NCBI GenBank assembly: GCA_035542215.1
Contig: DATKLW010000082.1
Location: forward strand, 1,733 to 65,732
DNA: 64,000 bases
Source of the DNA: Thermoanaerobaculia bacterium
GTDB lineage: Bacteria; Acidobacteriota; Thermoanaerobaculia; UBA5066
Direction: 5' to 3'
The notes beneath the pieces were generated by a model. It was not told where the DNA came from. It ran no database searches and was given only the letters and a program-made list of their open reading frames with translations. Shown here one piece after another: positions 11,897 to 62,307 of this stretch; positions within the stretch are counted from its first letter, which is position 1, and every line of letters begins with the position of its first letter. A program made the position numbers and the translations under genes.

Positions 11897-11940
11897 GATA
11901 TCGGCGCGGGCGGCCTCGCGCTCGCTCTCGCGCCGCGGCG

Positions 11941-33620: not shown

Positions 33621-33636
33621 GGGGTGGAGATTACCC

Positions 33637-43546: not shown

Positions 43547-43622
<76 letters not shown>

Positions 43623-43651: not shown

Positions 43652-44470
43652 TCAGTCCGCGATCCGGCGTTTCGCGACGTGAATCGCGTCCACGGGCCGC
43701 TTCCACACGCTTCGGCGCGCCTCTCCGTCGAGCCACGATTCCGCAGGGGCCGGTCTCCCGAACCGGAACCCCTGCGCGAACGGGATCCCGAGTTCCGCGA
43801 TCGTGCGTTCGTCCTCCGGGGTCTCGACGCCCTCGGCGATGACGCGGGCGCCCAGTCGGCGGGAGAGGTCCTGCAGACCCAGGAGAATCCCGGCCATCCG
43901 GGGGTTCCGGTGGACGTTCTTCACGAAGGACCGGTCCACCTTGATCCACTCGGGCGCGAGGTGGAGGAGGTGGTGGAGCCAGGGGTAGCGTGCGCCGACG
44001 TCGTCGAGGGCGAGCCGGATCCCCCGCCGGCGAAACGGAACGAGGCTCTTCGCGATCGCCCGCGCGTGCTCCCCGTCCAGCGACTCGGAGATCTCGAGGA
44101 TCACGCCCGCGGGGTCCACCTCGAGAGCGTCCATGAGCGAAAAGAGCGCGTCCCCGTCGAGCGACATCGTCCCGGCCTGGATGTTGATGAAGAGCTGGGA
44201 ACCTCTCGGGAGCGCCCGGCCGGAGCGCAGCGCCGAGTCGACGCACGCGAGGTCGAGCTGTCTCAGCACCCCGTCCTCGAGGGCGTGGCCGCGCCCGAAG
44301 AGCGTCTCGGGCATCGACAGCGCCGTGCCGCGCGGCCCGCGGAGGAGCGCCTCGAATCCGAGCTTCCTGCCGCTCGAGAGCTCGACGATGGGCTGGAAAG
44401 CCATGGACAGGAATCCGCGCGCGAGGAGAGACGCCACCTCGTCGCCGGCAGGCGCCGGACGGGCCTTCAT
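43652..44470 (-). CDS. Stand-alone EAL-domain c-di-GMP phosphodiesterase (last gene of the che-like operon)
   Basis: The ATG at 44470 is in an ATGA overlap with the cheB stop. The motifs EALLR, QLFINI, EISES, DDVG, IKVDRSF, EGVET and QGFRFGRP are all present, so it looks catalytically competent. No REC, GGDEF or sensor domain. Confidence 0.88.
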   Translation of the reverse strand: MKARPAPAGDEVASLLARGFLSMAFQPIVELSSGRKLGFEALLRGPRGTALSMPETLFGRGHALEDGVLRQLDLACVDSALRSGRALPRGSQLFINIQAGTMSLDGDALFSLMDALEVDPAGVILEISESLDGEHARAIAKSLVPFRRRGIRLALDDVGARYPWLHHLLHLAPEWIKVDRSFVKNVHRNPRMAGILLGLQDLSRRLGARVIAEGVETPEDERTIAELGIPFAQGFRFGRPAPAESWLDGEARRSVWKRPVDAIHVAKRRIAD

Positions 44471-45552
44471 CGCACCGCACGCTCGGCGCGCGCGGCCCGG
44501 AGAATCGCTCCGGCGATGCGCGAGAGCGGTTGGACCTCGCAGACCGCGCCGCGCGCGATCGCGGCCCCCGGCATTCCGAAGACGACGCAGGACGCTTCGT
44601 CCTGCGCGATCGTGTGGGCGCCGGCGAGCTTCATCTCGAGAAGGCCGTCGGCGCCGTCGGTCCCCATGCCGGTCAGGATGGCGCCGACCGCGTTGACGCC
44701 GGCGGCCTGCGCCGTCGACCAGAACAGGACGTCGGCGCTCGGGCGGTGGCGGGACACGAGCGGACCGTTCGTCACTTCCACGGAGTAGCGGGTGCCCGTC
44801 CGCCGGAGCCGCGTGTGCCGGTTGCCCGGCGCGACGAGGGCGCGCCCTTCGCGGACCGGGTCGCCGTTCTCTGCTTCCTTCACCTCGATCGTGCAGACCT
44901 CGTTCAGGCGCCGGGCGAATGCGGCCGTGAAGACCTCGGGCATGTGCTGGACGATCACGAGTCCCGGGGCGTCCGGCGAAAGCTCCTTGAGGAGCTGGCC
45001 GAGGGCCTCGGTCCCACCCGTCGACGCGGCGACGACGACGACGCGATCCGTCGAGACCGTCGGCGGCGCGCCGTGCGCGGGAAACGCCACCTTCGCGCTG
45101 ACGCTCGGCTCGGGCGGGCGCGCCGCCGGGCCGCGCCGGCGCACGCGCGCCCGCGCCGCGGCCCGGACGGAGTCCGCGAGGAGGGTCGCCGATTCCTCGA
45201 GGAAGCCCTGGACGCCGAGGCGCGGCTTCGTGACGATCTCGATCGCGCCCTCCTCGAGCGCCCGCAGCGCCGCTTCCGTCCCGGGGCCGGTCAGCGCCGA
45301 GCACACGACGACGGGGATCGGGTCGGAGCTCATGACGCTGCGAAGGAACGTGAGCCCGTCCATCCGCGGCATCTCGAGGTCGAGGAGGATCACGTCGGGC
45401 CGCGCCTTCTTGATCCGCTCGAACGCGATGATCGGGTCGGCCGCGATGTCGACGACGTGTCCCTCGCGGGCGAGCATTCCGCCGAGGACCTCGCGCACGA
45501 GCGCCGAGTCGTCCACCACGAGAACGCGGAGGGGCGGGGGCGGCGCGCTCAA
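44467..45552 (-). CDS. cheB: Chemotaxis response regulator protein-glutamate methylesterase
   Basis: REC domain (RVLVVDDSALVRE...DLEMPRMDG) plus a methylesterase domain (AASTGGTEAL, VQHMP, LTGMGTDGA). The start is proposed at the TTG at 45552 (TTGA overlap with the cheR stop). Confidence 0.9.
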   Translation of the reverse strand: MSAPPPPLRVLVVDDSALVREVLGGMLAREGHVVDIAADPIIAFERIKKARPDVILLDLEMPRMDGLTFLRSVMSSDPIPVVVCSALTGPGTEAALRALEEGAIEIVTKPRLGVQGFLEESATLLADSVRAAARARVRRRGPAARPPEPSVSAKVAFPAHGAPPTVSTDRVVVVAASTGGTEALGQLLKELSPDAPGLVIVQHMPEVFTAAFARRLNEVCTIEVKEAENGDPVREGRALVAPGNRHTRLRRTGTRYSVEVTNGPLVSRHRPSADVLFWSTAQAAGVNAVGAILTGMGTDGADGLLEMKLAGAHTIAQDEASCVVFGMPGAAIARGAVCEVQPLSRIAGAILRAARAERAVR

Positions 45553-46430
45553 CGCCCGGCCCCGCTCCGGCTTCCGCGGGGGAGCGCTTCGCCGTTCGTG
45601 TACGCCGATGGCATCAGCGGGCGCACGCGGTCCGTGATCCCGTTCAGGGTCTCCGCGTGGCCGACGAAGAAGAAGCCGCCGGGCGCGAGCCGGTCGAGGA
45701 GCCGGGAGACGGCGCGCCGCTTGCCGTCGGCGTCGAAGTAGATCAGGACGTTCCGGCAGAGGATCGCGTCGAAGGGTCCGTCCGGCGGCCAGTTGTCGCC
45801 CGCGAGGTTGATGCGCTCGAACCGGACGAGCGCCCGGAGCTCGGGACCGGCCTTCATCTTCCCGTCCTCGGGACCGGTTCCGCGAAGCATGTAGGCCTTC
45901 AGGAGGTCCGGCGGGATCTCGCGGGACCGCTCGAGGGGCCAGACGCCCGCGCGCGCGCGGGCGAGCGCTTTGGTCGAGAGGTCCGTCGCCAGGATCTCGA
46001 GATCCCACGTCTTCGGTAAGTACGAGGCCAGGAGCATCGCCAGCGAGAACGGCTCCTCTCCCGTCGAGCAGCCGGCGCTCCAGATCCGCACCCGGTGCGG
46101 CCGTCTTCTTCGCGACCCTTCTTCGAGCCAGGCCGGGAGGACGCGCTCCTTCAGGAACTCGAACTGCCCGGGCTCCCGGAAGAACCGGGTCTCGTTCGTC
46201 GCGATCGCGTCGAGCATGAGGACCCGCTCGTCCGCGCTCGCCTCGACGCGACCCAGGTACTCCTCGAACGAGTCCAGCCCGAGCTCGCGCAGGCGGCGGC
46301 CCAGCCGCCCGACCAGAAGCGCCCTCTTGGTTTCGGAGAGGTTGATCCCCGATTCACGGAGGATCATGGCCTGGAATCCGCGGAAGACGCGGGGCGTCAC
46401 CTGTTCGAGGCCTGGCGACGTTCCCCGCAT
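45549..46430 (-). CDS. cheR: Chemotaxis protein methyltransferase
   Basis: The ATG at 46430 gives a CheR N-terminal helical domain, TRFFRE and the SAM-binding motif IWSAGCSTGEEP. Confidence 0.9.
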   Translation of the reverse strand: MRGTSPGLEQVTPRVFRGFQAMILRESGINLSETKRALLVGRLGRRLRELGLDSFEEYLGRVEASADERVLMLDAIATNETRFFREPGQFEFLKERVLPAWLEEGSRRRRPHRVRIWSAGCSTGEEPFSLAMLLASYLPKTWDLEILATDLSTKALARARAGVWPLERSREIPPDLLKAYMLRGTGPEDGKMKAGPELRALVRFERINLAGDNWPPDGPFDAILCRNVLIYFDADGKRRAVSRLLDRLAPGGFFFVGHAETLNGITDRVRPLMPSAYTNGEALPRGSRSGAGR

Positions 46431-46437
46431 CTTCGGC

Positions 46438-48111
46438 TCAGAAGCGCCTGAAGTGACGGTCCGACTCGGCCGCATGGGATCCGACAGCGCGCTTCGTGAC
46501 GACGACGGCGGGCTGCGAGACGACCGCCCGCGCCGGAAGGGTCCGCGCCGCGTGCGTCCCTGAGACGCTCCGCGGCTCCGGCCGGGCCTGCAGCTCCGGG
46601 GCGCCCGTGCGGAAGAACGCAAGGACCTGCTGGAGGCCCTCCGCCTGGGTCGCCATCTCTTCGGCGGTCGCGGCGAACTCTTCCGCCGCGGCCGCGTTGC
46701 GCTGCGTGACCTGGTCGACCTGGTTCATGGCGCGGTTGACCTGCGTGACGCCCGACGCCTGCTCCCGGGACGCGGCGGCGACCTCCTGGACGAGCTCGGT
46801 CGTCTTGCGGATCGCGGGAACGAGCGCGCCGAGGGACTGGCTCGCGCGCTCGGCGACCGTCACGCTCGACCCGCTCAGCGTGCTGATGTCCCGGGCGGCG
46901 GTCTGGCTGCGCTCGGCGAGCTTGCGCACCTCGGCCGCCACGACCGCGAAGCCGCGGCCGTGGTCGCCGGCGCGCGCCGCCTCGATCGCGGCGTTGAGGG
47001 CGAGGAGGTTCGTCTGGTAGGCGATGTCCTCGACGAACGAGATCTTCTCCGCGATCGACCTCATCGCTCCGAGCGTTTCGGAGACGGCCTTCTCGCTCGC
47101 TTCGCCCTCGCGCGCGCCCTGCACCGCCATCTCCTCCATGCGCCGGCTGTTCTCGGCGTTCTGCGTGATCGACGCGCTCATCTCCTGGAGCGAGGCGGAG
47201 GTCTCCTGGATCGAGGAGGCCTGTTCTCCGGCGCCGCTCGAGAGCTGCTCCGATCCGGATGCGAGCTGGCGGGACGCCGCGGCCGACTGGGTCGTCGAAC
47301 GCTGGACCTGGACGAGGACTCCCTCGAACGTCTCGAGCATCTCGTTCAGCGACGCCCCCATTTCTCCGATCTCGTCCCTGCCGTGCGAGGCGATGCGCGC
47401 GGAGAGGTCTCCGCCCGCCGCGCGCCGGGCTTGCGTCGTGACGTCGACGAGCGGGCCGACCACACGCGCGGCGAAGACGAAGCCCGAGGCGACGCCGATG
47501 GCGACGAGAGCGAGGATCACGAGGATCGTCAGGATCGTCGTGCGGCTCGATGTCGCCCGGATCCGCTCGGCGAACGCCTCGGCGTTCTTCTGCCGGACCC
47601 CGGCGAGCTTCCCGAGGATCGCCCGCGCCTTCTCGAACTTCCGCTCGCCCTCGCTCATGGACAGCTCGATCGCGTCCTTCCGGGCGTCCGCGGACTCCTC
47701 CCCGAGGAGCCGGACGGCCTCGAGGGAGGACTTCTCCCAGTCCCCGTAGAGCGCCTCGAATTCGGGCCGGAGGGCCTTCTCGTCGTCGCTCGAGGGAACT
47801 GTCTTGTACTTCTCCCATGCCGCCCTCGCCAGGGTGAGCCGCAACCCGTGCTCCTTGCGCGCCCGCGCGGCTTCGTCGGACGCCTGCCTGACGAGCATGA
47901 GGCTGCGCTCTTCGACGCGCGCACGCTCCATGTCCCGGTCGATCTCCGCGATCGACGCGAGGGCGGGAAGGTCCTCACGGGTCGCGACCTGGAACGCCGA
48001 GGCCGCCCAGCGGAAATTTCCGAGGTTCCAGACGCACGCACCGGCGCCGATGAGGCTCCCGAGGAAGAACGCGCCGATGAATTTCGAGCGCAGCCTGATG
48101 TTTCGGGTCAT
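46438..48111 (-). CDS. Methyl-accepting chemotaxis protein (four-helix-bundle-like periplasmic domain + HAMP + MA domain)
   Basis: Two TM helices, HAMP, and the invariant hairpin [42 protein letters not shown]. Confidence 0.92.
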
Positions 48112-48132
48112 GGGGTCTCCTTCGCGGACCTC

Positions 48133-48702
48133 TTACTTGCCGATTGCCTTCTCGAGCCGTGTCAGGTTGACGCCCACGACGAGGACGCCGATCGGCTTGC
48201 CGAACGAGAGCACCGGGGCCGAAATCTGGATGTCATACGTGTCCGTGTCCGAGTCGAGCTCGGGCGGGCCCTGCCAGGGCATCCCGGTCCTGAAGGGGAG
48301 GTCGAACCGGGGCTGGCCCGCGTAGAAATAGTTCTCGGTCTTCTCGGTCATGGCGATCTGGTCCCCCCGCGTCCCACAGACGAAGGCGCGAACGTAGATC
48401 CCGTTCGAGCTTTCGAGCCTTCGGGCGAGGACCTTCCCGGCGTCGTTGGTCATGTAGGTCCGGAGGAGGTCGTCGCTCCGTCGAACCGTCTTCCATTTCT
48501 CGTTGTCCATGCCGCTGAGGGGCCCCATCTGGTTCTTCCAGATGACGGTCTTCACGAGGAGCGGGTCGGCGGCCCAGGCCTTGATCTGGACGATGTGACG
48601 GTCGAGCTCCTTCTGGAGCGCCGCGGTCATCTCGAACGTTGCGAGCGCCCGCCACGCGAGGACGCTCGCGAGCACGACGGCGAGGGTTGCGAGTTTTCTC
48701 AT
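48133..48702 (-). CDS. Secreted stand-alone Cache/PDC-like sensor-domain protein (paralog 2, 189 aa)
   Basis: The ATG at 48702 gives the signal peptide MRKLATLAVVLASVLA. The motifs WAADPLLVK, GMDNEKWKTVRR, YVRAF, TEKTENYFYAGQPRFDLPF and GKPIGVLVVGVNL resemble periplasmic Cache/PDC modules of receptors. No TM helix or output domain. Confidence 0.6.
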   Translation of the reverse strand: MRKLATLAVVLASVLAWRALATFEMTAALQKELDRHIVQIKAWAADPLLVKTVIWKNQMGPLSGMDNEKWKTVRRSDDLLRTYMTNDAGKVLARRLESSNGIYVRAFVCGTRGDQIAMTEKTENYFYAGQPRFDLPFRTGMPWQGPPELDSDTDTYDIQISAPVLSFGKPIGVLVVGVNLTRLEKAIGK

Positions 48703-48722
48703 GCTTGTCTCCCTTGTCTGCC

Positions 48723-49295
48723 TCACGGCTTCGAGCTCGGGTTCGAGAGCTTCGAAAGGTTCACGCCGACCACGAGGACGCCGACGGGCTTTCCGCGCGA
48801 GAGAACGGGCACCGCGATCTGGACGCCGTGAATTTCGGTCACTGTGTCGAGCTCGGGCTTTCCTTGCCACGTCTTGCCGGTCGTGAACGGAACGTCGAAC
48901 TTGGCCTGCCCCGCGTGGAGATAGCTGATCGTCTTCTCGGTGAAGGCCGCCTTCTCGCCCCGTGCGCCGTTCAGGAACGCCCTCAGGTAGAGGCCGTCCG
49001 ATTCCGAGATCTTCCGGCCGAGGAATTTCGCGGCCCCGTTCTGGGAGAGGTCCTTCACGACGTCGTCGGTCCGCCTCACGGACTTCCACTTCTCGTTGTC
49101 CATCCCCGCGATGGGGCCCTTCTCGTTCCGGTCGAGGACGGCCTTCACGACGATCGGGCTCGCGGCCCAGCCCTTCAGAACCTCGGTCTTCTGGGCCAGG
49201 ACTTTCTCGAGGTCCGGCGTGATGTCGACGGCACCGAGGGAACCTGCGAGGCCGATCACGAGGAGAGCCAGCGGCATTCTGAGGGTGGGTGTCAT
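48723..49295 (-). CDS. Secreted stand-alone Cache/PDC-like sensor-domain protein (paralog 1, 190 aa)
   Basis: The ATG at 49295 gives the signal peptide MTPTLRMPLALLVIGLAGSLGA. About half of the aligned residues are identical, by eye, to the adjacent paralog (GMDNEKWKSVRR, YLRAF, TEKTISYLHAGQAKFDVPF, GKPVGVLVVGVNL). Confidence 0.6.
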   Translation of the reverse strand: MTPTLRMPLALLVIGLAGSLGAVDITPDLEKVLAQKTEVLKGWAASPIVVKAVLDRNEKGPIAGMDNEKWKSVRRTDDVVKDLSQNGAAKFLGRKISESDGLYLRAFLNGARGEKAAFTEKTISYLHAGQAKFDVPFTTGKTWQGKPELDTVTEIHGVQIAVPVLSRGKPVGVLVVGVNLSKLSNPSSKP

Positions 49296-49324
49296 CTCGA
49301 TCTCCTTTTCCTTTCGCCCTTCTC

Positions 49325-49873
49325 TCACTGGCCGGCGGCCGAGTCGGCTCCGGCGGAGGCGCCGTCGGAAGGGGGGGCGACGGACGCGACCCTCAGGAGC
49401 TCGGCGGCCGAAAGCACGCGGTCGATGTCGAGGAGAAGCACGAACCGGTCCGTGAGGCGCCCGATGCCGAGCAGGTAATCGACGCGCACCGCCGTCCCGA
49501 ATGCGGGCGCCGGCTCGATGTCTCCGGGCAGGACGTCCAGGACCTGGCTCACCGAGTCCGCCATGACGCCCATGACGACCCGCTCGCCCTCGAGGTCGGT
49601 CTCGACGACGACGATGCAGGTCCGGCGCGTGACGGCGCTCGGAGGGAGGCCGAACTTGACCGCGAGGTCGATGACGGGGACGACGCTTCCGCGGAGGTTC
49701 ATGACGCCGCGGACCCACGGCGGCGTCGCCGGGACCCGCGTGACAGCGTCGTATTCGATGATCTCCTTGACGCGGAGAATCCCGATCGCACACTCGTTCC
49801 CGGCGATGAAGAAGCCGAGGTACTGAGCCGAGGCCGTTGGTCCGAGGGTCTCTTCCATCTTCGTTTTCCCCAC
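49325..49873 (-). CDS. cheW: Chemotaxis coupling protein CheW
   Basis: CheW domain: YLGFFIAGNECAIGILRVKEII...PWVRGVMNLRGSVVPVIDL...LLLDIDRVL. Confidence 0.9.
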   Translation of the reverse strand: MGKTKMEETLGPTASAQYLGFFIAGNECAIGILRVKEIIEYDAVTRVPATPPWVRGVMNLRGSVVPVIDLAVKFGLPPSAVTRRTCIVVVETDLEGERVVMGVMADSVSQVLDVLPGDIEPAPAFGTAVRVDYLLGIGRLTDRFVLLLDIDRVLSAAELLRVASVAPPSDGASAGADSAAGQ

Positions 49874-49875
49874 GG

Positions 49876-51510
49876 TCAGGCCCCGCCTGCCGGCGCGGCG
49901 AAGGCCGCCATCTCACCCGACGCACCGAGCGCGGGGCGCCCGGGCACAGCCGCCTCCTGGCGGAGCGGAATTCTCGTCGCATCGACCGGGTGCCGCGCGC
50001 GTCCGGCGTCGGCTTTCCCGGCCCGGAAGAAGGACATGAGCTCCTGGAGCGCCTCGGCCTGGGCCGCCATCTCCTCCGCCGTCGAGGCGAGCTCCTCGGA
50101 CGCCGCCGCGTTGCGCTGCGTGACGTCATCCATCTGCGTCATCGTCCGGTTCATCTGGGAGACGCCCGACGCCTGCTCGGCCGTGGCGGCCGCGACCTCC
50201 TGGACGAGATCGGCGGTCTTCCGGATCGCGGGAACGAGCGCGGAGATGAGCTGGCCCGAGCGCTCGGCGACCCGGACGCTCGAGGATGCGACCTCGGAGA
50301 TCTCCCTGGCGGCTTGCTGACTTCTCTCGGCGAGCTTGCGGACCTCGGTCGCGACGACCGCGAAGCCCCTGCCGTGCTCGCCCGCGCGCGCGGCCTCGAT
50401 CGCGGCGTTGAGCGCGAGGAGGTTCGTCTGATAGGCGATCTCCTCGATGATCACGATCCTCTCCGCAATCGTCTTCATCGCGCGGACGGTCTCCGAGACC
50501 ACGCGGCCGCTCTCCTCGCCCTCCTCGGCTCCACGGCGCGCCATCCGCTCCATCTCGCGGCCGTTCTCGCGGTTCTGGCTGATCGACGCGCTCATCTGCT
50601 CGAGGGACGCCGTCGTCTCCTCGACCGAGGCCGCCTGCTCGCTCGACGACTCCGAGAGCGACTGGCACGACGCGGACACCTGTTGCGCGGCCTGGGCGAC
50701 GGCGCGGGCCCCCTCGTCGACCTGCCCGAGGACACGCCTCAGGGTCTGGGCCATGTCCTGCATCGCCGCGTCGAGCTGGCCTGTCTCGTCGCGGTGGATG
50801 GCGACGTCCTCTCCCCCGAGGTCGCCCCGCGCGATCCGCTCGGCGCGGGCGACGGCCGCCTTCAACGGCACGGCGATGCTCCGTGCGACGGCCCAGCCGA
50901 TCCCCACTGCGAGAAGGGCCGCAAAGACGATGAAGACGGTCATGACCTGGCGGGCGGCACGGACCTTTTGAGCCGCCTCCTCCGTGGCCTGGACGAGGCC
51001 TTCGTTCTGCGCCGCGAGAAACCGGTACCAGGCGGCGCGGTACTCCAGGAGCTTCGGGACCATGACGTCGTGGGCGACCGCCACGGCGGCGTCGCGCTTG
51101 CCGCTTTCGAGGAGACTTCTCGCGTGGGCCCGGCTCTCGAGGTACGGGCTGCGCAGCGCCTTGACCTCGGCGAAAAGCGCCCGGTCGTGGTCGGACGCGA
51201 GGAGGGGCTCGATTTTCGCGAGCCCGGCCCCGATCAGGTTGCTGTTCTCCTGGTTCTGCGCGAGGAGCGCCTGTTCGGGCTGCCCTCCCGAAACGAGGAA
51301 AAGCTGCATCGTGATCCGCGCGTTGTCGACCGAGCGCTCGAGGACCTCGTTCGTGAGCGTCACGAGCGCGAACCGCTCGCGCGTGACCGTCCGGAGGTTC
51401 GTGTCCAGCCGCGTCGTCGTCCTCAAGCCGAACCAGCCGATCGTGAGGGCGAAGACGATGACGATCCCAAACCCGGCGAGGAGCCTTTGCCCGATGCGGA
51501 ACGATCTCAC
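49876..51510 (-). CDS. Methyl-accepting chemotaxis protein (4HB-like sensor + HAMP + MA domain)
   Basis: Start re-set to the GTG at 51510, with a GGAGGG Shine-Dalgarno 6 nt upstream. Two TM helices, HAMP, and the hairpin [42 protein letters not shown]. The 263 upstream codons of the track ORF overlap cheA out of frame. Confidence 0.9.
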
Positions 51511-51512
51511 GC

Positions 51513-53219
51513 TTACCCTCCAATTGCGGCGAGGGTCCCGTGCGGGTCGGCCGTGTCGGGAGCCCGCTCGTTCAGGACCTGCTTGAGAAGCTTCGAAACG
51601 TCGAGGATCAGCGCTGCGCGCCCGTCCCCGAGGATGGCGCTTCCCGCGACGGCCACGACGCCGCGGAAGAGCGCCCCGAGAGGCTTGATGACGACCTGGT
51701 GCCCGCCGAGGAGCGCGTCCACGACGAACCCGGCCTGGCCCGACTCGCTCCGGACCACGACGACGTTCTCGCGCGCGGAGGGCGGCCCGTCGATGTCGAA
51801 ATGCTCGCGGAGTCTCAGCCATGGAAGCGGAACGCCGCGGAGGCCCATGAGGCCCGAGAGGCCCGCTCCGCGGGCGTCCGCCGGGAGATCGAGGCACTCG
51901 ACGACGGAGTCCATCGGGAGGACGAACGACTCGCCCGCCGCGCGGACCACGAAGCCGTCGATGAGGGCGAGCGTGAGCGGCAGGCGGATCCGAAACGTCG
52001 TCCCGCGGCCCGGCTCGCTCTGCACCTCGATGGAGCCCCGAAGCGCCTCGACGTCGCGGAGGACGACGTCCATCCCGACGCCGCGGCCCGACAGTTCCGT
52101 GATGCCGGCGGCCGTCGAGACGCCGGGCGCGAAGACGAGCTCGAAGGCTTCGGATCCACGCGGCTCGTCGGTCCCGACGAGCCCCAGCGCGCGGGCGCGC
52201 TCGACAAGGAGCCGGCGGTTGATGCCGGCGCCGTCGTCGGAGAGCTCGATCACGATCGCGCCCGCGTCGTGGTACGCGCGGATCCGGAGCGTGCCCCACG
52301 GCGTCTTGCCGGCGGCTGTCCTCACGTCCGGCGCCTCGATCCCGTGGTCGACCGCGTTCCGCACCATGTGGGTGAGGGGGTCGCGGATCTTCTCGATGAC
52401 GCGCATGTCGAGCTCGATCTCGCCGCCGTCGATCGAAAGCCGGACCTGCTTGCCGAGCGCCCGAGACACGTCGCGCACCGTGCGCGCAAACTGGTGAAGC
52501 GTCGGGCCGATCGGGATCATGCGGATGCGCGTGACGAGCTCCTGGAGGTCCGCCTCGAGCGTGTCGGCCTCGCGGTGGATCTCGAGGGCCTTGCCGGCCT
52601 CGGGCGTCCCGCCGTGTTCGAGGTGCTGCCGCAGCCGGCCCCGCAAGACCGCGATCTCCCCGACGAGGTCGAGCATCTGGTCGAGCTTCTCGACGTCGAC
52701 GCGCAGCGTGCGCGTGGGGAGGTTCAGGTCGGGAACCTCGTTCGCGCGGTCCGCCGCGCGGCGGCGCGGGTGCACGACGGCCGCGGCGCGGGTCGCGCCC
52801 GGCGCGTCCTGCTCCCGCGCGCTGGACACGCGCGCGAGGAGCGCGCGATGGGACGGCTGCATCTCGTCGAGCCCGCTCGCGGCGTCGGCGAGGAGTTGGC
52901 GGAGTGCGTCGACGGACTCGAGGAGGAGCGTCACGAGCTCCGGCGTGACGGCCAGGCTCCGGTTGCGGACGCGCTCGAGGAGGTCCTCGAGGATGTGAGT
53001 GAACTCGGTGAGGGCGCTGAAGCCGAGGGTGGCCGAGTTTCCCTTCAGGGTGTGCGCGGCACGGAAGATCGCCTGAAGGAGCTCGTCGTCGCCCGGGTGC
53101 TCCTCGAGCGCCACGAGCGCCTCCTCCATCTGGACGAGGCGCTCCTCGGCTTCCGCCAGGAACACTCCCAGAAGGGCCTTGCGGTCGAACTCGGAGCCGG
53201 ACGCGTCGCTCGTCGTCAC
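51513..53219 (-). CDS. cheA: Chemotaxis histidine kinase CheA (Hpt, dimerisation, HATPase and CheW-like domains; no fused REC)
   Basis: The GTG at 53219 is in a GTGA overlap with the cheD stop. Hpt motif [17 protein letters not shown] box [14 protein letters not shown]1 DDGAGI, G2 [10 protein letters not shown], and a C-terminal CheW-like P5 domain. Confidence 0.9.
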
Positions 53220-53743
53220 AGCGTCTTCACCGAGACGTCTCCCGACGCGGTCCGGAAGACGATCTTGCGGCCTCGCGTCCCGCCGACCTCGCTCTGGACG
53301 ACGGGGATTCCCGCTTCCTCGAGGAACTCGAGCGCGACGGCGACGTTCTGCGCGCCGATCGGGACCCGGTCGCCCGCCGGCTCGAACTGCGATGCGCCGC
53401 CGAAAACGCGCGCGGTCAGGTTCCGGCGCTCGCAGCCGAGCGTGAGGATTCTCTCGAGGAGGATCTCCATCGCGCTGCGCCCGAAGCGGCCCGCGGAGCT
53501 CTCGTCGCGCGTCCGGTGGGGGAGCAGGAAATGGTTCAGGCCGCCGTGCCGGGTCGCGCCGTCCCAGAAGCACACGCAGACGCACGAGCCGAGGACTGTC
53601 GAGACGGCGAGCGCATCGGCCGTCACGAGCAGCTCGCCCGGATAGAGATACACGCTGGGGACCCCCTGGTCCTCCCGGCCCGCCGGGCGCTCGTTCCGCG
53701 CGAGGGCGCGTGCGAGAGGCGTGGGGACGCGGGAGTCCGCCAT
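53216..53743 (-). CDS. cheD: Chemoreceptor glutamine deamidase CheD
   Basis: The ATG at 53743 gives [10 protein letters not shown]...[13 protein letters not shown]...GGLNHFLLP...[11 protein letters not shown], the CheD signature. It overlaps the upstream stop by 1 nt. Confidence 0.85.
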
Positions 53744-54501
53744 CAGTGCTTTCTGCCAGCGGACGTGCCGGAAAGCAGGGCCGACGAGGCGAGGGCGGTG
53801 CCGGCCTCGGCCGCGAGAAGGTTCAGGAGGTCGTGGTCGATGGGCTCGAGCCGCCCGGCCTTCTGCGGGAGAAGGTTGAACAGCGTGATGACGAAGGCGA
53901 CCGAGTCGCGGAATTTCACGGGGAAGCATGCGGTGATGCCTTCGCCGTCGACGCCCGGCGCAACGGGCAGGTAGGGCTGTCCGGTCAGCGCCGTGCGGCC
54001 GATGGAGCCCTCTCCGAGGGCGATCTCGGCGGCGCCGAGCGCCTCGGCGCCCTTCGAGGCCGCCAGCGTGAGCCTGCCGTCCTTGACCTCGAAAACGGCG
54101 ACCTGTTCGCAGCCGACGAGGAACTCGATGATGTCGATGATGACGGCGAGGATCTCCTCGCGCTGGAGCGAAGAGTGGAGGCGCACGCTTGCGACGTAGA
54201 GGTTGGCGAGCGCCGTGTTCTGCTGCTCGACGAGGACGTACTCCTCGACGTAGCGCCGGTTTTCCGCGGCGATCTCCGCGAGCTTCCGCTCGAGCTTGAC
54301 CTCCTCGAGCTTGTGCCGGTCGATCGTCTCGCGGTTTGTGAGGAGCTCTTCCTCCAGCCGCGCTTTGTCGAGCTGGAGGGTCGCGGACGCGACGCGGAGC
54401 TTCTCGTTCTCGCCCAGCAGATCCTGGACGTAACGGTGGGTGTCCGCCTGGACGCGCCGGACGTAGGCCTCGAGCGAATCGCGTTCTCCGGTCGGCGCCA
54501 T
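53743..54501 (-). CDS. Coiled-coil + GAF-like domain protein (paralog B, 252 aa)
   Basis: The ATG at 54501 lies 1 nt after the cheY stop. The N-terminal ~110 aa are heptad-rich (LRVASATLQLDKARLEEELL...LERKLAEIAAENRRY) and end in ALANLYVAS. The C-terminal ~130 aa are GAF-like (ILAVIIDIIEFLVGCEQVAVFEV...GSIGRTALTGQPY...LLNLLAAEAGTAL). Confidence 0.65.
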   Translation of the reverse strand: MAPTGERDSLEAYVRRVQADTHRYVQDLLGENEKLRVASATLQLDKARLEEELLTNRETIDRHKLEEVKLERKLAEIAAENRRYVEEYVLVEQQNTALANLYVASVRLHSSLQREEILAVIIDIIEFLVGCEQVAVFEVKDGRLTLAASKGAEALGAAEIALGEGSIGRTALTGQPYLPVAPGVDGEGITACFPVKFRDSVAFVITLFNLLPQKAGRLEPIDHDLLNLLAAEAGTALASSALLSGTSAGRKH

Positions 54502-54502
54502 C

Positions 54503-54874
54503 TCAGTCCCCCAGCACATTGCGGACTTTGGTCAGGAGCTCGAGCCCGTTGACCGGCTTCGTGACGTAGTCGGCGGCGCCGGCCGTGAAGCCGCTCTCGA
54601 CGCTCTCGCCCTCGCCGCGGGTCGTGACCATGATCACGGGAATCGCCTTCGTCTCGTCTCGCCCCTTGAGCGCCGCGCAGGCTTCGAAGCCGTTCATCTT
54701 CGGCATGACGACGTCGAGAAGGACGAGGTCGGGCCGCTCGCGGACAGCGGCCTCGACGCCCTGCTGCCCGTCCTTGGCGACGAGGAGCTCGTAGTTCGCC
54801 TTGCTCAGGATCATCTTGGCCATCATCAAGCTCGTCTCCGAGTCGTCGACGAGCAGGATCCGTTTCCGCGCCAT
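54503..54874 (-). CDS. cheY: Single-domain CheY-like response regulator
   Basis: The ATG at 54874 has AAGGAGG upstream. Sequence MARKRILLVDDSETSLMM...DLVLLDVVMPKMNG...PVIMVTT...DYVTKP. Confidence 0.88.
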   Translation of the reverse strand: MARKRILLVDDSETSLMMAKMILSKANYELLVAKDGQQGVEAAVRERPDLVLLDVVMPKMNGFEACAALKGRDETKAIPVIMVTTRGEGESVESGFTAGAADYVTKPVNGLELLTKVRNVLGD

Positions 54875-54932
54875 GGGGGTGGCCTCCTTGTCTCTCTGGT
54901 CTCTGGGGTTCTCGGTCGGGGTCATCACGCGC

Positions 54933-55724
54933 TCAGCTCTTCACGAGGTCGAGGAACTTCTGCACCGTCTTCAGCTTGCGATCCACGGAGACGTAGCACT
55001 GCGAGGAGACGAGGGCGACCGCCGCCTGCTCCCCGACGAGGTCGAACAGCTTGCGGTCCAGCTCGGAGAAGCTCTTCTTGTGCGAAAGCAGCGCGTAGAT
55101 CGTGAGGACGCCGACGAGGCGGTCGCTCAGGAACAGGGGCGTGCAGCAGATCGGGCCTCGCGCCGCGGGGGCGGTCCCGTTCGTCTCGGCGAACACGGTC
55201 TGGCGCCGCGCGACGGCGTCGCGCTCGAGGCCGTGGGTCAGGGCCGCGAGATGGGTGATGTTCGGGGGAAGGTCGCCTTCCCGGGCCGCAATCACGAAGT
55301 CGTTCCGCACGTCGTCGACGAGATAGACGACGAACTCGCCGGCTCCGATCAGGTTGATCGCGATGTCCGCGATTGCGCGGACGACGGCGGCGGGGTCGAG
55401 CGTCACGTGGAGCTGGAAGGTCGCGGCGTAGAGGTTTGCAAGGCTGGTGGCGTGCTCCTCGAGGTCGGCGTACCGTCGCGCGAGGTCGAGGTTCTCCTCC
55501 GCGAGCGAGAGGGCTTCGCGGCTCAGCCGCTCGTGCTCGCCCTTCTCGACCTCGACGTCCTTCTCGAGCATCGACTCGGCCATCGCGATGTCGGACTCGA
55601 GGCTCTGGACCCGGCCCCGGAGGCGCTCGTTCTCGCGCATGAGGTCGTCGCGGAGCTCGCGGCTCCGCTCGGCCAGCTCGTGGAAGAGCCCCCGGACCGC
55701 CTCGGCACGATCGGGCGCCGTCAT
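54933..55724 (-). CDS. Coiled-coil + GAF-like domain protein (paralog A, 263 aa)
   Basis: The ATG at 55724 is in an ATGA overlap with the upstream gene. Same architecture as 53743-54501: a coiled coil ending in SLANLYAAT, then a GAF-like region (VVRAIADIAINLIGAGEFVVYLV...LFDLVGEQAAVAL). Confidence 0.65.
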   Translation of the reverse strand: MTAPDRAEAVRGLFHELAERSRELRDDLMRENERLRGRVQSLESDIAMAESMLEKDVEVEKGEHERLSREALSLAEENLDLARRYADLEEHATSLANLYAATFQLHVTLDPAAVVRAIADIAINLIGAGEFVVYLVDDVRNDFVIAAREGDLPPNITHLAALTHGLERDAVARRQTVFAETNGTAPAARGPICCTPLFLSDRLVGVLTIYALLSHKKSFSELDRKLFDLVGEQAAVALVSSQCYVSVDRKLKTVQKFLDLVKS

Positions 55725-56953
55725 CGCGGCCTCTTGAGGAGGGCCGAGCGATCCGCGGCGGCACGCTTGGCGAGCTCGCGCAGCGCGGCGTTCTCGAGCG
55801 TCACGGAGACCTGGCGCGCGAGCGCGATGAGAGCCCTCGCGTCCGGAGCGCCCGAGAGCGCCGAGCGGCAGAAGAGGATCAGCGAAACGTCGCCGAGGAC
55901 GAAAAGCGGGACGGCGAGGACGACGCGCGCTCCGGAGGCGGCCGAGGGGCCGACGGGCTCGAGGCCACCCGAGGAGTTCCGGGCCACGAAGCCGACGTAG
56001 GGCCGGCGGCTCATCGCGATCGTCTCGAAGAGGGGGCACTCGCCCGCCGCGAAGAAGGTCTTCGCTTCGCTCGGGCGCCCCTCGGACCAGGCGAACGCCT
56101 CGCCGAACTGGCCGAGAACGCGGAACCCGTCTTTTGCACGGAGCACGAGGCCGCCGTCCGCGTAGAGCTCCGCGGCGTACCGGAGAAGCAGGAGGCCGAT
56201 CTCGCCGCGGCTCGTCGCGACGAAGAGCTCCTCGCTGATCGAAAGATACGAGGCGGCAGTTCGGGCGCCGAGCGTGTCCTCCGCCTCGGGAAGAGCGGGT
56301 GCGCCCTCGTCGAACCAGCGGATGATCTTCTCGGCGTCTTCCTCGACCTCGCGGGCGTGCGCGCCGGGCTCGTCGATGGCCGCGGGCGGATTCCCGGCGC
56401 CCGCTCCGCTCCGGTTCCGGCGGTCCTGCAGCAGGCTCGCCTCGAGGAGGAGGTGGCGCGGCTCGACGCCCTTCTCATGGACGAGGTCGAGCGCGAGCTG
56501 CGACGTCCCGTGCGGAAGCGCGAGAGCGCCGACGCGGAATTCGAAGTCCGTGTTCGTCCAGGCCGTAAGCCGCTCGATCGTCTCGGCCATCTGCGCCTTG
56601 ACGACTTCCTCGATCCGGGCCCGGCGGACGTACGAGAGCTCGACGAGCGCGTCGCCGAGCCGCATCCCCGGGCACTGGGCGAGGTACTGGAGCGCTTCTC
56701 TCACGTCGTTCTGCGTGAGGTCGCCGCTCTCGATGAGCCGGTCCCCGAGCGACTGGTAGGACTCCGTGCAGGTCGTCTGGATGATGGCGCCGCCGCGGAA
56801 CGCGATGAGTGCTTTCTGTCCGTCTCCGCGGTGCAGGAGGAGCGCGCCCGTCTTCGAGCTGACCTGGAGGACCTGGATGATGTCCGCCAGCGGGACGTCT
56901 TCGAGCCTTCCCGCGAAGGCGTTCTCGGAGGCCTCGACCTCGACGACCGTCAT
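55721..56953 (-). CDS. PATAN (DUF4388) domain protein with tandem T2SSE_N/MshEN-like motifs and a C-terminal GAF-like domain
   Basis: The ATG at 56953 is in an ATGA overlap with the upstream REC gene. GRLEDVPLADIIQVLQVSSKTGALLLHRGDGQKALIAFRGGAII matches the DUF4388/PATAN pattern. This is followed by SLGDRLIESGDLTQNDVREALQYL and RLGDALVELSYVRRARIEEVVKAQ. The C-terminal ~170 aa are GAF-like. Confidence 0.7.
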   Translation of the reverse strand: MTVVEVEASENAFAGRLEDVPLADIIQVLQVSSKTGALLLHRGDGQKALIAFRGGAIIQTTCTESYQSLGDRLIESGDLTQNDVREALQYLAQCPGMRLGDALVELSYVRRARIEEVVKAQMAETIERLTAWTNTDFEFRVGALALPHGTSQLALDLVHEKGVEPRHLLLEASLLQDRRNRSGAGAGNPPAAIDEPGAHAREVEEDAEKIIRWFDEGAPALPEAEDTLGARTAASYLSISEELFVATSRGEIGLLLLRYAAELYADGGLVLRAKDGFRVLGQFGEAFAWSEGRPSEAKTFFAAGECPLFETIAMSRRPYVGFVARNSSGGLEPVGPSAASGARVVLAVPLFVLGDVSLILFCRSALSGAPDARALIALARQVSVTLENAALRELAKRAAADRSALLKRPR

Positions 56954-57330
56954 GGCCGGGCCTCTCCGGCCAGCGCGAGCCGGAGGCGCTCGAGCGACAC
57001 GGGCTTCTCGAAGTAGAACGTCGCCCCGAGCCGCAATGCTTTCTCCATGACCGTGGGGTTTCCGAAGCCCGTCAGGACGATGACGGGGCATTTCGGGCGG
57101 AGACGCCTGCAGGCGGACAGGACCTCGAGGCCGAGCGTCCTCTCGTCCCCGCCCAGGTGAAGGTCCGTGATGATCGCGCGATACTCGCGCCGCGCGAGGA
57201 CCGCGAGGGCTGCGCGGGCGGAATCGGCCGTGTCGACGCGGAAATCCATCTGCTCGAGTGCTCGGCTGAGCATGAAGAGAACCGAGGGGCTGTCATCGAC
57301 GATGAGAACTCGAGGGGCTTCGCGCCGCAC
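56950..57330 (-). CDS. Single-domain response-regulator receiver (first gene of the che-like operon)
   Basis: RVLIVDDSPSVLFML...AIITDLHLGG...VIVLTGFG...YFEKP. Start preferred at the GTG at 57330, with GGAG 5 nt upstream. The track start (TTG 57369) is possible. Confidence 0.85.
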   Translation of the reverse strand: MRREAPRVLIVDDSPSVLFMLSRALEQMDFRVDTADSARAALAVLARREYRAIITDLHLGGDERTLGLEVLSACRRLRPKCPVIVLTGFGNPTVMEKALRLGATFYFEKPVSLERLRLALAGEARP

Positions 57331-57409
57331 CGCGACTCCAGCCCGACGATTCGTTGCTGATATCCCCAATGAAGGCCTTCCTCCGCGGACTTGATCCGCC
57401 CGGAGTCAG

Positions 57410-57425
57410 TGCACGGCCCGCGCCA
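57410..57425 (-). promoter_or_regulatory. Candidate sigma-54 (-24/-12) promoter of the che-like operon
   Basis: The minus strand reads TGGCGC-GGGCC-GTGCA, against the consensus TGGCAC-N5-TTGCA. It lies in the 224-bp gap between the NtrC-family gene and the first operon gene, about 70-80 nt upstream of the start codon. Confidence 0.5.
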
Positions 57426-57593
57426 GATTTCCCCCTGCGATCGGGCTTCCTTACAAGTCGATCAAAGCCAATGCTTTGGCGGAGAATTCAACGCCGCTCG
57501 GGCGGGGACGATGTGTGTCGGGGAGCAGGTGGACGATGTCGGAATTTCCGGCACGTCGCGAAATCCGGCAGGCGTTTGCCCGTCGGCGCGGCG

Positions 57594-58948
<1,355 letters not shown>

Positions 58949-58952
<4 letters not shown>

Positions 58953-61329: not shown

Positions 61330-62307
61330 CTACGGCTCGCTGACGACCTTCCAGGACGGATCGGGATCGTATTCCGTGATCGCCGCGGCCAGCTCACCGG
61401 TCCCCTCGCCGAGGTTCTTCTCGTACACGCGGCCCTGCTGATTGACGATGAACGTCATGACCCCCGAGCTTCCCCATTTGTCGGGGTACGCGATCAGGGC
61501 GAAGCCGGCGATCATGTTGCCGTTGATCACGTAGCCGAACTTCCCGCCCGGCGCGTGGGCTCCCTGGGCCTTGAGGATCCTGAAGAAGTACCCGTGGTAG
61601 GGCGATCTTTTCTTCGCCTCGCCGCTCCTGGCCGCGCCCGGCGTATAGCCTTCGGCCCTCTCCTGCGCGATGAGGCTTCCGAACGGACTCGGCGTCCCCC
61701 CCTCGGGAACCTCCCAGAACAGCCCGTCCCGCGTTCCGGGGGTGCTGATGAAGTGCTGCGCGTAGACGGCGAGCCCGTCGCGGGAGGTATCCCGCGCCTG
61801 GGTGAAGTACTCCCATTGCGCCACCGCGTAAGCGCGGCAGGTCATGACCGCGGAGAGTTCGTTCCGGCCGATCTTCCGGTTGAGGAGCTCGTCGAGGCCC
61901 GCCGCGGTATCGAAGCGCCATTTCCGGCCGTCCCGGACGATCGGGATCGGCGACTGCCAGCGCTCCTCGCCGACGACAAGGACGTACTTCGCGTCGCCGA
62001 CCTTCTCGAGAGCCGCACCCTTCGCGAGCCGTTCGCCGAACCCCTTGAGCGCGGTGGCGTCCGCGACGGCGTCTCCCGTCAGGAGCTTTTCGCGCTCCGG
62101 TCCGTAAATCGCCGCCATCTTCTCCTGGTCCGCGGACTTCACGGCTTCGATCAGCGCCTGCACGGCGTCTTGCGGGGTGGCGAAGGACTTCTGCTTCGGC
62201 GCCTTCGCGTCCGCGGCCGACAGCGCGCTTGCGCACAGGGCACACGCCAGGACGAGCGGGGCGAGGGCGGCCGTTGCGCCACCCGGGATCCTGTTTTCGT
62301 GGTTCAT
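61330..62307 (-). CDS. DUF2950-family secreted protein
   Basis: Signal peptide, then the characteristic C-terminal YHGYFFRILKAQGAHAPGGKFGYVINGNMIAGFALIAYPDKWGSSGVMTFIVNQQGRVYEKNLG. Confidence 0.8.
   Translation of the reverse strand: MNHENRIPGGATAALAPLVLACALCASALSAADAKAPKQKSFATPQDAVQALIEAVKSADQEKMAAIYGPEREKLLTGDAVADATALKGFGERLAKGAALEKVGDAKYVLVVGEERWQSPIPIVRDGRKWRFDTAAGLDELLNRKIGRNELSAVMTCRAYAVAQWEYFTQARDTSRDGLAVYAQHFISTPGTRDGLFWEVPEGGTPSPFGSLIAQERAEGYTPGAARSGEAKKRSPYHGYFFRILKAQGAHAPGGKFGYVINGNMIAGFALIAYPDKWGSSGVMTFIVNQQGRVYEKNLGEGTGELAAAITEYDPDPSWKVVSEP

Follow-up and report, generated by a model that had tools for sequence, protein, structure and literature searches.

A predicted sigma-54-controlled 34H chemosensory operon with PATAN-GAF and coiled-coil-GAF accessory proteins and a terminal EAL phosphodiesterase in an uncultured Thermoanaerobaculia bacterium

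The subject of this analysis is a 15-gene chemosensory operon on the minus strand of a 64,000-nucleotide stretch of DNA (contig DATKLW010000082.1 of assembly GCA_035542215.1, positions 1,733 to 65,732), hereafter referred to as the window, from an uncultured soil or sediment member of the Thermoanaerobaculia (Acidobacteriota) that is known as a metagenome-assembled genome (MAG). The locus is an architectural variant joining elements of known kinds, namely a core with receptors of class 34H, a PATAN-based output, a co-expressed phosphodiesterase and sigma-54/two-component control. The window has a G+C content of about 70%, and frame analysis of the G+C content at third codon positions (GC3) revealed unbroken minus-strand coding from 43652 to about 57330, on the 5' side of which lie a non-coding gap of ~260 nt and two further minus-strand genes. 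The gene model agrees with the public calls for two ENA contigs, both of which match the operon region at 99-100% identity. Pfam and these calls place the genes, here numbered G1 to G15, in the order receiver (REC), PATAN(DUF4388)-x, coiled-coil-GAF (cc-GAF), CheY, cc-GAF, CheD, CheA, methyl-accepting chemotaxis protein (MCP), CheW, two proteins of ~190 aa, MCP, CheR, CheB and EAL; fifteen co-directional genes in this order had been described in an earlier sequence-only reading of the same DNA, which is borne out by GC3, Pfam and the public calls at 43652-57330. The features are as follows, from the upstream regulators to the end of the operon.

58949-61189, minus strand: multi-PAS histidine kinase (four PAS, HisKA, HATPase_c; Pfam; public call of 746 aa)
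57594-58952, minus strand: NtrC-type sigma-54 enhancer-binding protein (REC, AAA+ Sigma54_activat, HTH_8; Pfam Sigma54_activat E 2e-61)
57538-57567, minus strand: two tandem 13-mers, CGGATTTCGCGAC and CGGAAATTCCGAC, ~125 nt upstream of the -24 element
57410-57425, minus strand: sigma-54 -24/-12 promoter-like element TGGCGCGGGCCGTGCA (GG-N10-GC; comparison of orthologous spacers)
56950-57330, minus strand: G1, single-domain receiver of 126 aa, NtrC/ActR-like REC, the stop of which overlaps the G2 start (ATGA) (Pfam; NCBIfam; public call)
55721-56953, minus strand: G2, 410 aa, in which a PATAN (DUF4388/PatA_N) domain with a helical, MshEN-like insert is joined by a disordered linker to a C-terminal GAF-like fold (Pfam; AlphaFold2)
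54933-55724, minus strand: G3, coiled-coil and GAF protein of 263 aa (Pfam GAF_2/GAF_3/GAF above threshold)
54503-54874, minus strand: G4, CheY, 123 aa from ATG 54874 (public call from 54925, 140 aa) (Pfam)
53743-54501, minus strand: G5, second coiled-coil and GAF protein, 252 aa (paralogy to G3)
53216-53743, minus strand: G6, CheD receptor deamidase (Pfam E 6e-27)
51513-53219, minus strand: G7, CheA with Hpt, dimerization, HATPase_c and CheW-like domains, lacking P2 and a C-terminal receiver (Pfam; NCBIfam CheA models)
49876-51510, minus strand: G8, transmembrane four-helix-bundle (4HB)-HAMP MCP, class 34H, lacking a C-terminal pentapeptide (Pfam; alignment to G12)
49325-49858, minus strand: G9, CheW (Pfam E 4e-36)
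48723-49295, minus strand: G10, secreted single Cache/PDC-fold protein of 190 aa with a signal peptide (AlphaFold2 fold; Foldseek)
48133-48702, minus strand: G11, tandem paralogue of G10, 189 aa, with a signal peptide, 47% identity (sequence comparison)
46438-48111, minus strand: G12, transmembrane TarH/4HB-HAMP MCP, class 34H, with a ~50-aa linker and a C-terminal H[FY]RRF (Pfam)
45549-46430, minus strand: G13, CheR methyltransferase (Pfam E 1e-54)
44467-45519, minus strand: G14, CheB (REC and methylesterase; Pfam E 1e-61)
43652-44470, minus strand: G15, stand-alone EAL phosphodiesterase of 272 aa, the start of which overlaps the CheB stop by 4 nt (Pfam E 7e-40)

As proposed previously, the 15 genes look like a single operon, and a scan of the coding strand found neither a sigma-70-like promoter nor an intrinsic-terminator-like site inside the unit. 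An Rfam scan for riboswitches or leader RNAs matched only a tRNA outside the operon. The right edge of the operon had been set at 57425, a position that is non-coding and belongs to the -24 promoter element, whereas coding most likely starts at GTG 57330, with GGAG 5 nt upstream and a public call of 126 aa. Six 1- or 4-nt stop-start overlaps had been counted; five are certain (G1/G2, G2/G3, G6/G7 and G14/G15 with 4 nt, and G5/G6 with 1 nt), while a sixth or seventh hinges on alternative GTG/TTG starts. The intergenic gaps, previously given as 0-29 nt, reach 58 nt, because CheY probably begins at ATG 54874. Indeed, the public CheY start (window 54872-54928) is probably 17 codons early: AAGGAGG lies 8 nt upstream of ATG 54874 and the orthologues have 123 aa. 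All of the earlier domain calls survive, although those of the GAF domain in the PATAN protein and of the Cache-like pair come from predicted folds and fall below the Pfam thresholds. A tRNA-Thr gene (anticodon CGU; window 43547-43622, plus strand), situated on the opposite strand 29 nt past the EAL stop, marks the 3' boundary of the operon, and a convergent operon with an extracytoplasmic function (ECF) sigma factor lies beyond it.

Control of the operon by sigma-54 and the adjacent activator, which had also been suggested, is well supported in silico. The count of -24/-12 motifs in the window alone is not significant (25 matches, 28 expected). A GGCAC-N5-GTGC-type element with GG-N10-GC spacing was nevertheless found in each of the nine different orthologous spacers that could be read, although its background frequency is only ~0.1 per kb per strand, and its recurrence across these spacers, which otherwise diverge between loci outside the element and the tandem repeats, makes the promoter convincing. 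The NtrC-type activator gene overlaps the kinase gene by 4 nt; its orthologues are 71-91% identical and occupy the same position in all loci of types A and A' (defined below), where the multi-PAS kinase, the probable sensor for this activator, is also found directly upstream of the cassette. The tandem 13-mers are a candidate activator-binding site: the CGGAWWTYNCGAC pair also stands directly behind the stop codon of the activator gene in L005, L008, L010 and L011, and a looser form occurs in L041 (L numbers denote the loci surveyed).

The Che core is complete, as had been claimed, with CheA, CheW, two MCPs, CheR, CheB, CheD and CheY all recognized by Pfam. CheA (Hpt, dimerization, HATPase, CheW-like), CheW and the MCPs exceed the gathering scores, and CheD is present in a cluster that has no CheC, CheX or CheZ. 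Both receptors are assigned to class 34H, since G12 shows exactly one seven-residue deletion in each arm flanking the hairpin relative to Escherichia coli Tsr (36H), and the signalling domain of G8 aligns to that of G12 without gaps. The C-terminal pentapeptide of G12 is HFRRF, and H[FY]RRF is strictly kept after a variable linker in five G12 orthologues; G8 is missing from L005 and is absent or truncated in some orthologous cassettes. The 34H receptors are a minor class that has been assigned to F8 systems, and in Pseudomonas syringae the 34H receptor encoded by the F8 cluster is the one bearing the pentapeptide (PMC11253619). With class definitions taken from secondary sources, and judged by its receptor class alone, the Che core is probably of class F8.

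The two ~190-aa proteins encoded upstream of G12 had been called Cache-like, a call upheld by the predicted fold (pLDDT, the predicted local distance difference test, of 88; Foldseek matches to the sensor domains of KinD, DctB, Tlp3 and CitA) but not by Pfam, in which Cache remains sub-threshold for G10 and G11 (20 and 19 bits, with a cut-off of 27). Some of their homologues have precomputed dCache_1 matches, and G10 has a counterpart of 100% identity in a Thermoanaerobaculia MAG. A Cache-fold protein is encoded directly upstream of a TarH/4HB MCP in a gammaproteobacterial MAG (L003 10001-12200), and a che cluster of Methylomirabilis (L051 6001-8405) has the order CheA, MCP, MCP, CheW, Cache, MCP, CheR, CheD, CheB. 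Since the Cache-MCP pairing occurs in these other settings, the central block of the operon (CheW, Cache, 4HB MCP, CheR) belongs to a kind that is widespread. On the simplest reading, the Cache protein is a partner, in the periplasm, of the receptor encoded directly downstream, and the two look like a conserved pair of periplasmic co-receptor and MCP. Found in three phyla, the pairing may represent a general mechanism of indirect sensing. The secreted ~190-aa Cache/PDC family has 344 database matches and precedes TarH/4HB-HAMP MCPs in Acidobacteriota, Gammaproteobacteria and Ca. Methylomirabilis. The Methylomirabilis che cluster ends with genes for an HDOD/HD-domain protein and a GAF histidine kinase (L051 11525-12442), another case of a nucleotide-signalling-type gene ending a che operon.

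The proteins encoded at the 5' end of the operon are those that set it apart. The receiver G1 is only 26% identical to G4, the CheY, which is the best-conserved protein of the cassette (73-90% identity where PATAN shows 60-87%). In G2 the PATAN domain is recognized with confidence (PF14332, 69 bits, cut-off 25); there is no REC domain and Pfam sees DUF4388 alone. An AlphaFold2 model built with 39 homologues (pLDDT 78) places in residues 226-406 a fold resembling that of GAF domains (Foldseek E 3e-6 to 1e-4, template-modelling score normalized to the target 0.57-0.69), the cAMP-bound Lcd1 and the PDE2A GAFs being among the top matches. The earlier description of G2 as a PATAN-GAF protein therefore holds for PATAN by Pfam and for GAF by fold, although the GAF domain is undetectable by sequence. 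A shared origin of this domain with the cc-GAF family was considered and rejected, as neither BLASTP nor hhalign gave a match. An exhaustive profile search retrieved close relatives over the full length of G2 in only about six clusters at 50% identity and, more weakly, PATAN+GAF-like proteins of ~380 aa, some from Nitrospirota MAGs. The PATAN-protein relatives all come from Acidobacteriota MAGs (Thermoanaerobaculia or Holophagales), and those with source names checked are called hypothetical or DUF4388, with nothing functional.

In G3, about 100 coiled-coil-like residues precede the GAF domain. G5, which had been called a second cc-GAF protein, falls below the Pfam threshold for GAF but is a full-length paralogue of G3 (30% identity, E 4e-20). 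NCBIfam offers no family for G3, G5, G10 or G11, no CheC- or CheZ-family match to G3 or G5 was found in Pfam or NCBIfam, and no CheW-like or MCP-like docking domain was found in G2, G3 or G5. An apparent CheY-ccGAF fusion (P0243, 375 aa, on a 255-kb contig), which if natural would have served as Rosetta-stone evidence, was treated as an assembly artefact, because the sequence at the junction departs from its relatives at the very point expected for a 1-nt frameshift. The suggestion that the locus senses ligands through its GAF domains found no specific support: the cc-GAF proteins always stand beside a REC or PATAN protein, and their appearance is more that of partners in output or of adaptors.

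The distribution of these genes was surveyed by combining a scan of one genome per species (37 loci) with look-ups of encoding contigs and with tblastn using 17 proteins of the window. Flanks were read to 10 kb, a span that leaves the upstream end of type B and the 3' end of type A' outside. Five arrangements were distinguished.

Type A (the window and five further loci, L005, L013, L046, L047 and L048; PATAN identity 67-92%): kinase, activator, REC, PATAN-GAF, cc-GAF, CheY, cc-GAF, CheD, CheA, (MCP), CheW, Cache, Cache, MCP, CheR, CheB, EAL
Type A' (L012, L014, L015, L016): PATAN-only open reading frame (ORF) in place of the REC gene; receptor genes reshuffled
Type B (~15 loci; PATAN 43-47% identical): cc-GAF, CheD, CheA, MCP, MCP, CheW, CheR, CheB, cc-GAF, PATAN-GAF
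Type C (Holophagales): CheY, CheA, CheW, dCache-MCP, HEAT-repeat protein, CheR, CheB, cc-GAF, PATAN-GAF
Type D (L019): cc-GAF, PATAN-GAF, REC only

The best-conserved accessories are two pairs, PATAN-GAF with cc-GAF and CheY with cc-GAF. A G3-type cc-GAF gene adjoins PATAN-GAF in types A, A', B, C and D wherever the flanks are readable, with the exception of L041, in which the PATAN-GAF match is itself truncated, and G5-type cc-GAF genes lie directly downstream of a CheY of one conserved subfamily wherever the upstream gene is visible. The G5 family also occurs in a CheY, cc-GAF, CheD, CheA order that has no PATAN (L050) and in a REC, cc-GAF, Hpt trio (L049). Type B retains an orthologous Che core (51-64% identity) and has no Cache or EAL genes, while the Che proteins of type C are of a different class, ~33% identical. 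The REC gene precedes PATAN-GAF in the window, follows it in type D and is missing in A', B and C. In L014 (9357-10579), a PIN/VapC-like ORF and a stand-alone PATAN-only gene were noted at the REC position, between the activator and PATAN-GAF. EAL is present in all five other window-type loci with a readable 3' end, although L013 reaches only its first bases; L005, L046, L047 and L048, where the full gene is visible, have the 4-nt overlap with cheB in the same position. The 3' boundary of the operon is fixed by the genes past EAL, which differ from one type A genome to another. None of the loci of types B, C and D gave a match to EAL. That the accessory genes are conserved beside the Che core consequently holds for PATAN and cc-GAF, but for EAL within the window type only and for Cache within the window type and A' only. 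The gene combination had been described as not recognized, and indeed none like it is described in the literature searched on PATAN, DUF4388, Acidobacteria chemosensory systems, MshEN and EAL in che clusters.

The EAL domain of G15 covers residues 15-240 of 272 and Pfam finds no REC, in agreement with the earlier remark that the protein has no receiver. In an alignment to the EAL structure 2R6O all of the motifs EAL, N, ExxE, DD, K, EGxE and QG are kept, and the best NCBIfam matches lie far under every equivalog cut-off, from which it follows that G15 is not orthologous to any named phosphodiesterase. The proposed coupling of the locus to cyclic di-GMP (c-di-GMP) turnover is retained in part: the active-site motifs are intact and EAL is kept in window-type loci, but EAL is confined to that cassette and a Wsp-like mechanism, in which CheA controls the enzyme, is unsupported because the EAL protein has no receiver. 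E. coli PdeH (YhjH) is a stand-alone EAL protein of the flagellar/chemotaxis regulon that is coupled to it by co-expression, and a simpler model is that G15 would act in the same manner. Such a PdeH-like role is the simplest since EAL is lineage-restricted while the MshEN-like motif described next is family-wide.

The PATAN domain of G2 contains an insert of four helices (residues 68-121, pLDDT >90). With the G2 family profile, the best PDB matches are Vibrio cholerae MshE (5HTL residues 8-63, E 3.5e-4) and Thermus thermophilus PilF, in both of which G2 residues 68-124 align to the 53-residue c-di-GMP-binding segment. The MshEN motif consists of two tandem 24-residue RLGxxhhxxGhhxxxxLxxxLxxQ units with a five-residue spacer (PMC5013675). 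In the G2 family the second unit reads RLGxxLVxxGxVxxxxVxxxVxxQ, with R, G and V21 in all 39 homologues and Q in 34 of them. The first keeps LG, L6, G10, L17 and L21, but its R is replaced by T/S/P and its Q by M/L/R, and a spacer of six residues follows it. Unlike the MshEN of MshE and PilF, which forms an ATPase N-terminus, this segment is inserted in a PATAN domain and its first motif is degenerate. We consider it less likely than not that G2 binds c-di-GMP through this insert. If the site is real, a PATAN insert that reads c-di-GMP would explain why a receiver-less EAL protein ends the operon, and an MshEN-like site within a PATAN domain would suggest a physical link between chemosensing and c-di-GMP.

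The reading that we prefer, to which we give an even chance of being correct, is that of a 34H chemosensory pathway under sigma-54 control, in which the output is PatA-like but split and a phosphodiesterase resembling PdeH is co-expressed. The multi-PAS kinase would phosphorylate the NtrC-type activator, which may bind the tandem repeats ~125 nt upstream and open the -24/-12 promoter, so that the 15 genes are transcribed as one predicted mRNA; these steps are suggested by the conserved elements. By homology, the two 34H transmembrane four-helix-bundle receptors would form an array with CheW and CheA, with adaptation through CheR, CheB and CheD and with the HFRRF tail of G12 tethering the methylation enzymes, while G10 and G11 are most likely to be periplasmic ligand-binding partners of the downstream receptor. 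CheA would phosphorylate CheY (G4) and probably also G1. CheY-P may then act on G5, its invariant neighbour, and G1 may work with G2, the PATAN-GAF protein, and with G3, the invariant partner of G2. Together these proteins would amount to a regulator of the PatA type whose parts are separate polypeptides. Its probable target is an ATPase or platform of the type IV pilus or type II secretion family, or else a polarity factor, and less likely the flagellar motor; the pilus/secretion-type target is proposed by analogy, because the cyanobacterial PATAN output binds PilB and PilC. The EAL protein would lower c-di-GMP whenever the operon is on, as PdeH does, and G2 may read that pool through its MshEN-like PATAN insert. 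The extra genes probably let the cassette control something that is not a flagellum.

Several observations weigh against this reading. G1 is missing from A' and from types B and C, and the split-PatA triad is consequently not universal. No pilus, secretion-ATPase or flagellar gene was found in the window or in ~50 flanks, which is why the output target is named by analogy only. EAL occurs only in the window-type cassette, whereas the MshEN-like motif is family-wide, so that a link between EAL and PATAN is not obligatory. Furthermore, G2 scores exactly at the cut-off of the MshE-related c-di-GMP-binding family NF053729 of NCBIfam (38.2 bits, cut-off 38), and its first motif is devoid of the Arg and Gln that matter according to Wang et al. 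To these points are added the single character, receptor class, from which the F8 assignment is drawn, and the nature of the genomes compared, all of which are MAGs, with frameshifts in some assemblies. The inferences all come from MAG sequences of uncultured organisms, and variant che clusters are common.

Other explanations draw on the same observations. Under a Wsp-like pathway, CheA signalling would control the EAL enzyme, the main output would be c-di-GMP turnover and the GAF proteins would be small-molecule sensors. The translational coupling of EAL to cheB, a position kept in five other window-type loci, and the intact catalytic motifs speak for it, as does the precedent of DipA, a receiver-less phosphodiesterase of Pseudomonas aeruginosa that docks on CheA, according to the citing text of PMC11253619. 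G15, however, has neither REC nor any other regulatory domain, no GGDEF partner is found in the window, and the B, C and D loci, in which EAL has no match, keep PATAN-GAF/cc-GAF, B and C also with a Che core. Ligand binding by the GAF proteins is equally unsupported, their invariant neighbours being REC and PATAN proteins, and this explanation appears quite improbable. The cc-GAF and PATAN-GAF proteins could alternatively be inputs, that is, soluble sensors or scaffolds docking on the array or on CheA and tuning the kinase to an intracellular ligand such as a cyclic nucleotide or c-di-GMP. Binding small ligands is a common property of GAF domains, the G2 matches include the cAMP-bound Lcd1 and the PDE2A GAFs, G2 has a possible c-di-GMP site, G5 is encoded between cheY and cheD-cheA, and the REC, cc-GAF, Hpt trio links the family to phosphotransfer components. 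Yet PATAN is demonstrably an output in cyanobacteria, none of these proteins has a CheW-like or MCP-like docking domain, and the pair persists in a unit of three genes whose third encodes no more than a REC protein, which is the layout of a response-regulator module and not that of a sensor for CheA; a role as inputs is accordingly given little credence.

On the other hand, the locus could encode ordinary F8 flagellar chemotaxis, in which CheY-P binds the flagellar switch and the extra genes are modulators, with the cc-GAF proteins, for example, serving as CheY-P phosphatases or sinks that replace CheC, CheX and CheZ. The 34H receptors are assigned to F-class (F8) systems, the adaptation set is full and includes the tethering pentapeptide, CheD is encoded in a cluster lacking CheC, CheX and CheZ, and a coiled-coil protein always follows CheY. 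The cheY-cheZ gene arrangement resembles this succession of CheY and a coiled-coil protein. Against this, cultured relatives are, to our knowledge, described as non-motile. Flagellar genes are absent from the 64 kb and from every flank, and G3 and G5 have no CheC- or CheZ-family match in Pfam or NCBIfam. The PATAN-GAF/cc-GAF pair, moreover, is also found with a different Che class and without Che genes, which argues that it is an autonomous output module, and we regard flagellar chemotaxis as unlikely here. The earlier statement that no flagellar or pilus genes occur in the window is upheld by Pfam, none being matched among the ~37 other ORFs of the window that were scanned, eight of which have no family at all.

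A near counterpart of the window's system is found in cyanobacterial Tax1/Pix (PixGHIJL) and other systems with PatA-type regulators, which are Tfp-class chemosensory pathways. In PatA-type regulators of cyanobacteria the output is the PATAN domain, not the receiver, and it binds PilB1 and the PilC N-terminus (bioRxiv 10.1101/2021.06.11.447907). As in Tax1/Pix, a plain CheY and a PATAN protein are encoded at the 5' end of the cluster, the PATAN domain contains an insert of two helical hairpins that is akin to the N-termini of PilB/GspE ATPases, and a flagellar link is lacking; in cyanobacteria, this behaviour is known to be affected by c-di-GMP as well. Unlike PatA-type proteins, the PATAN domain of the window is fused to a GAF-like fold, and REC is separate, translationally coupled and dispensable in sister lineages. 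Membership of the PatA type fails because the PATAN-REC fusion is absent, while the resemblance in logic is strong. The window also differs from Tax1/Pix in its CheA, which lacks a C-terminal receiver, in its 34H transmembrane four-helix-bundle receptors, as opposed to the GAF/phytochrome PixJ types, in its full CheR/CheB/CheD adaptation, two cc-GAF partners and EAL, and in its phylum, Acidobacteriota.

With F8 (P. syringae cluster II) the window shares the 34H class, a cluster-encoded receptor with an aromatic pentapeptide, CheA, CheW, CheR, CheB and CheY. The text of the P. syringae F8 paper (PMC11253619) makes no mention, for its F8 cluster, of EAL, PATAN or cc-GAF genes, nor of control by sigma-54 or by a dedicated two-component system, and what F8 systems do is itself not well defined. 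Wsp of Pseudomonas, a system of the alternative cellular functions (ACF) class, resembles the window in having a c-di-GMP enzyme encoded last in a chemosensory operon with no motility genes nearby; unlike the EAL hydrolase of the window, which lacks a receiver, WspR is a REC-GGDEF cyclase phosphorylated by WspE, and WspA is, as cited in PMC3945109, a 40H receptor, versus 34H here. PdeH and DipA are, like G15, receiver-less EAL phosphodiesterases tied to a chemotaxis system, and G15 is similar in size (272 aa) with its motifs intact; PdeH, unlike G15, is encoded outside the che operon and serves the flagellar brake (YcgR).

The type C cluster of Holophagales, with CheY, CheA, CheW, MCP, a HEAT-repeat protein, CheR and CheB, to which PATAN-GAF/cc-GAF are added, resembles Myxococcus xanthus Che7 with its HEAT-repeat Cpc7; it differs from the window in its Che class (~33% identity). 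A Myxococcus-type Che cluster at the window itself, which the 70% G+C and the many sigma-54 activators would suggest, was ruled out: the homologues are all from Acidobacteriota MAGs, and M. xanthus has no CheD and has receptors of classes 40H/44H.

The targets of most chemosensory systems are unknown, and this locus offers a defined candidate output module, made up of PATAN-GAF and CheY, each with a cc-GAF partner of its own. With adjacency kept across dozens of uncultured Acidobacteriota and in two Che classes, the module provides concrete proteins to test. In it, output through PATAN would no longer be confined to cyanobacteria and would take a form that is split and fused to GAF. A more far-reaching proposal, which we consider doubtful, is that REC, PATAN-GAF and cc-GAF constitute an undescribed portable output module used in at least two unrelated Che classes of Acidobacteriota, with distant relatives in Nitrospirota, and that a working MshEN-type site in it would integrate CheA phosphorylation and the c-di-GMP level set by EAL in order to control a pilus- or secretion-type ATPase; on the same proposal, the Cache-fold proteins would be new and widespread periplasmic co-receptors of four-helix-bundle MCPs.

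Some further features of the window lie outside the operon. PATAN proteins are often linked to MglA-type GTPases. At 2860-4482 (minus strand), 50 kb from the operon, a 540-aa protein is encoded of which the N-terminal ~160 residues match Arf/small-GTPase models and the rest is unannotated. A DUF2950/DUF3300 gene pair lies upstream of the PAS kinase (61330-63350, minus strand). A second two-component pair, consisting of a HAMP-HisKA kinase and an NtrC-type sigma-54 activator, is found at 32229-35085 (minus strand), and a protein with a RelA/SpoT synthetase domain, the first ~350 residues of which have no Pfam match, at 25900-27366 (plus strand). Three consecutive ORFs of 1268, 154 and 589 aa at 7629-13710 (minus strand) have no Pfam match, the largest encoding a polytopic membrane protein, in a segment that combines an unusual AT skew of +0.21 to +0.25 with the highest G+C content of the window.

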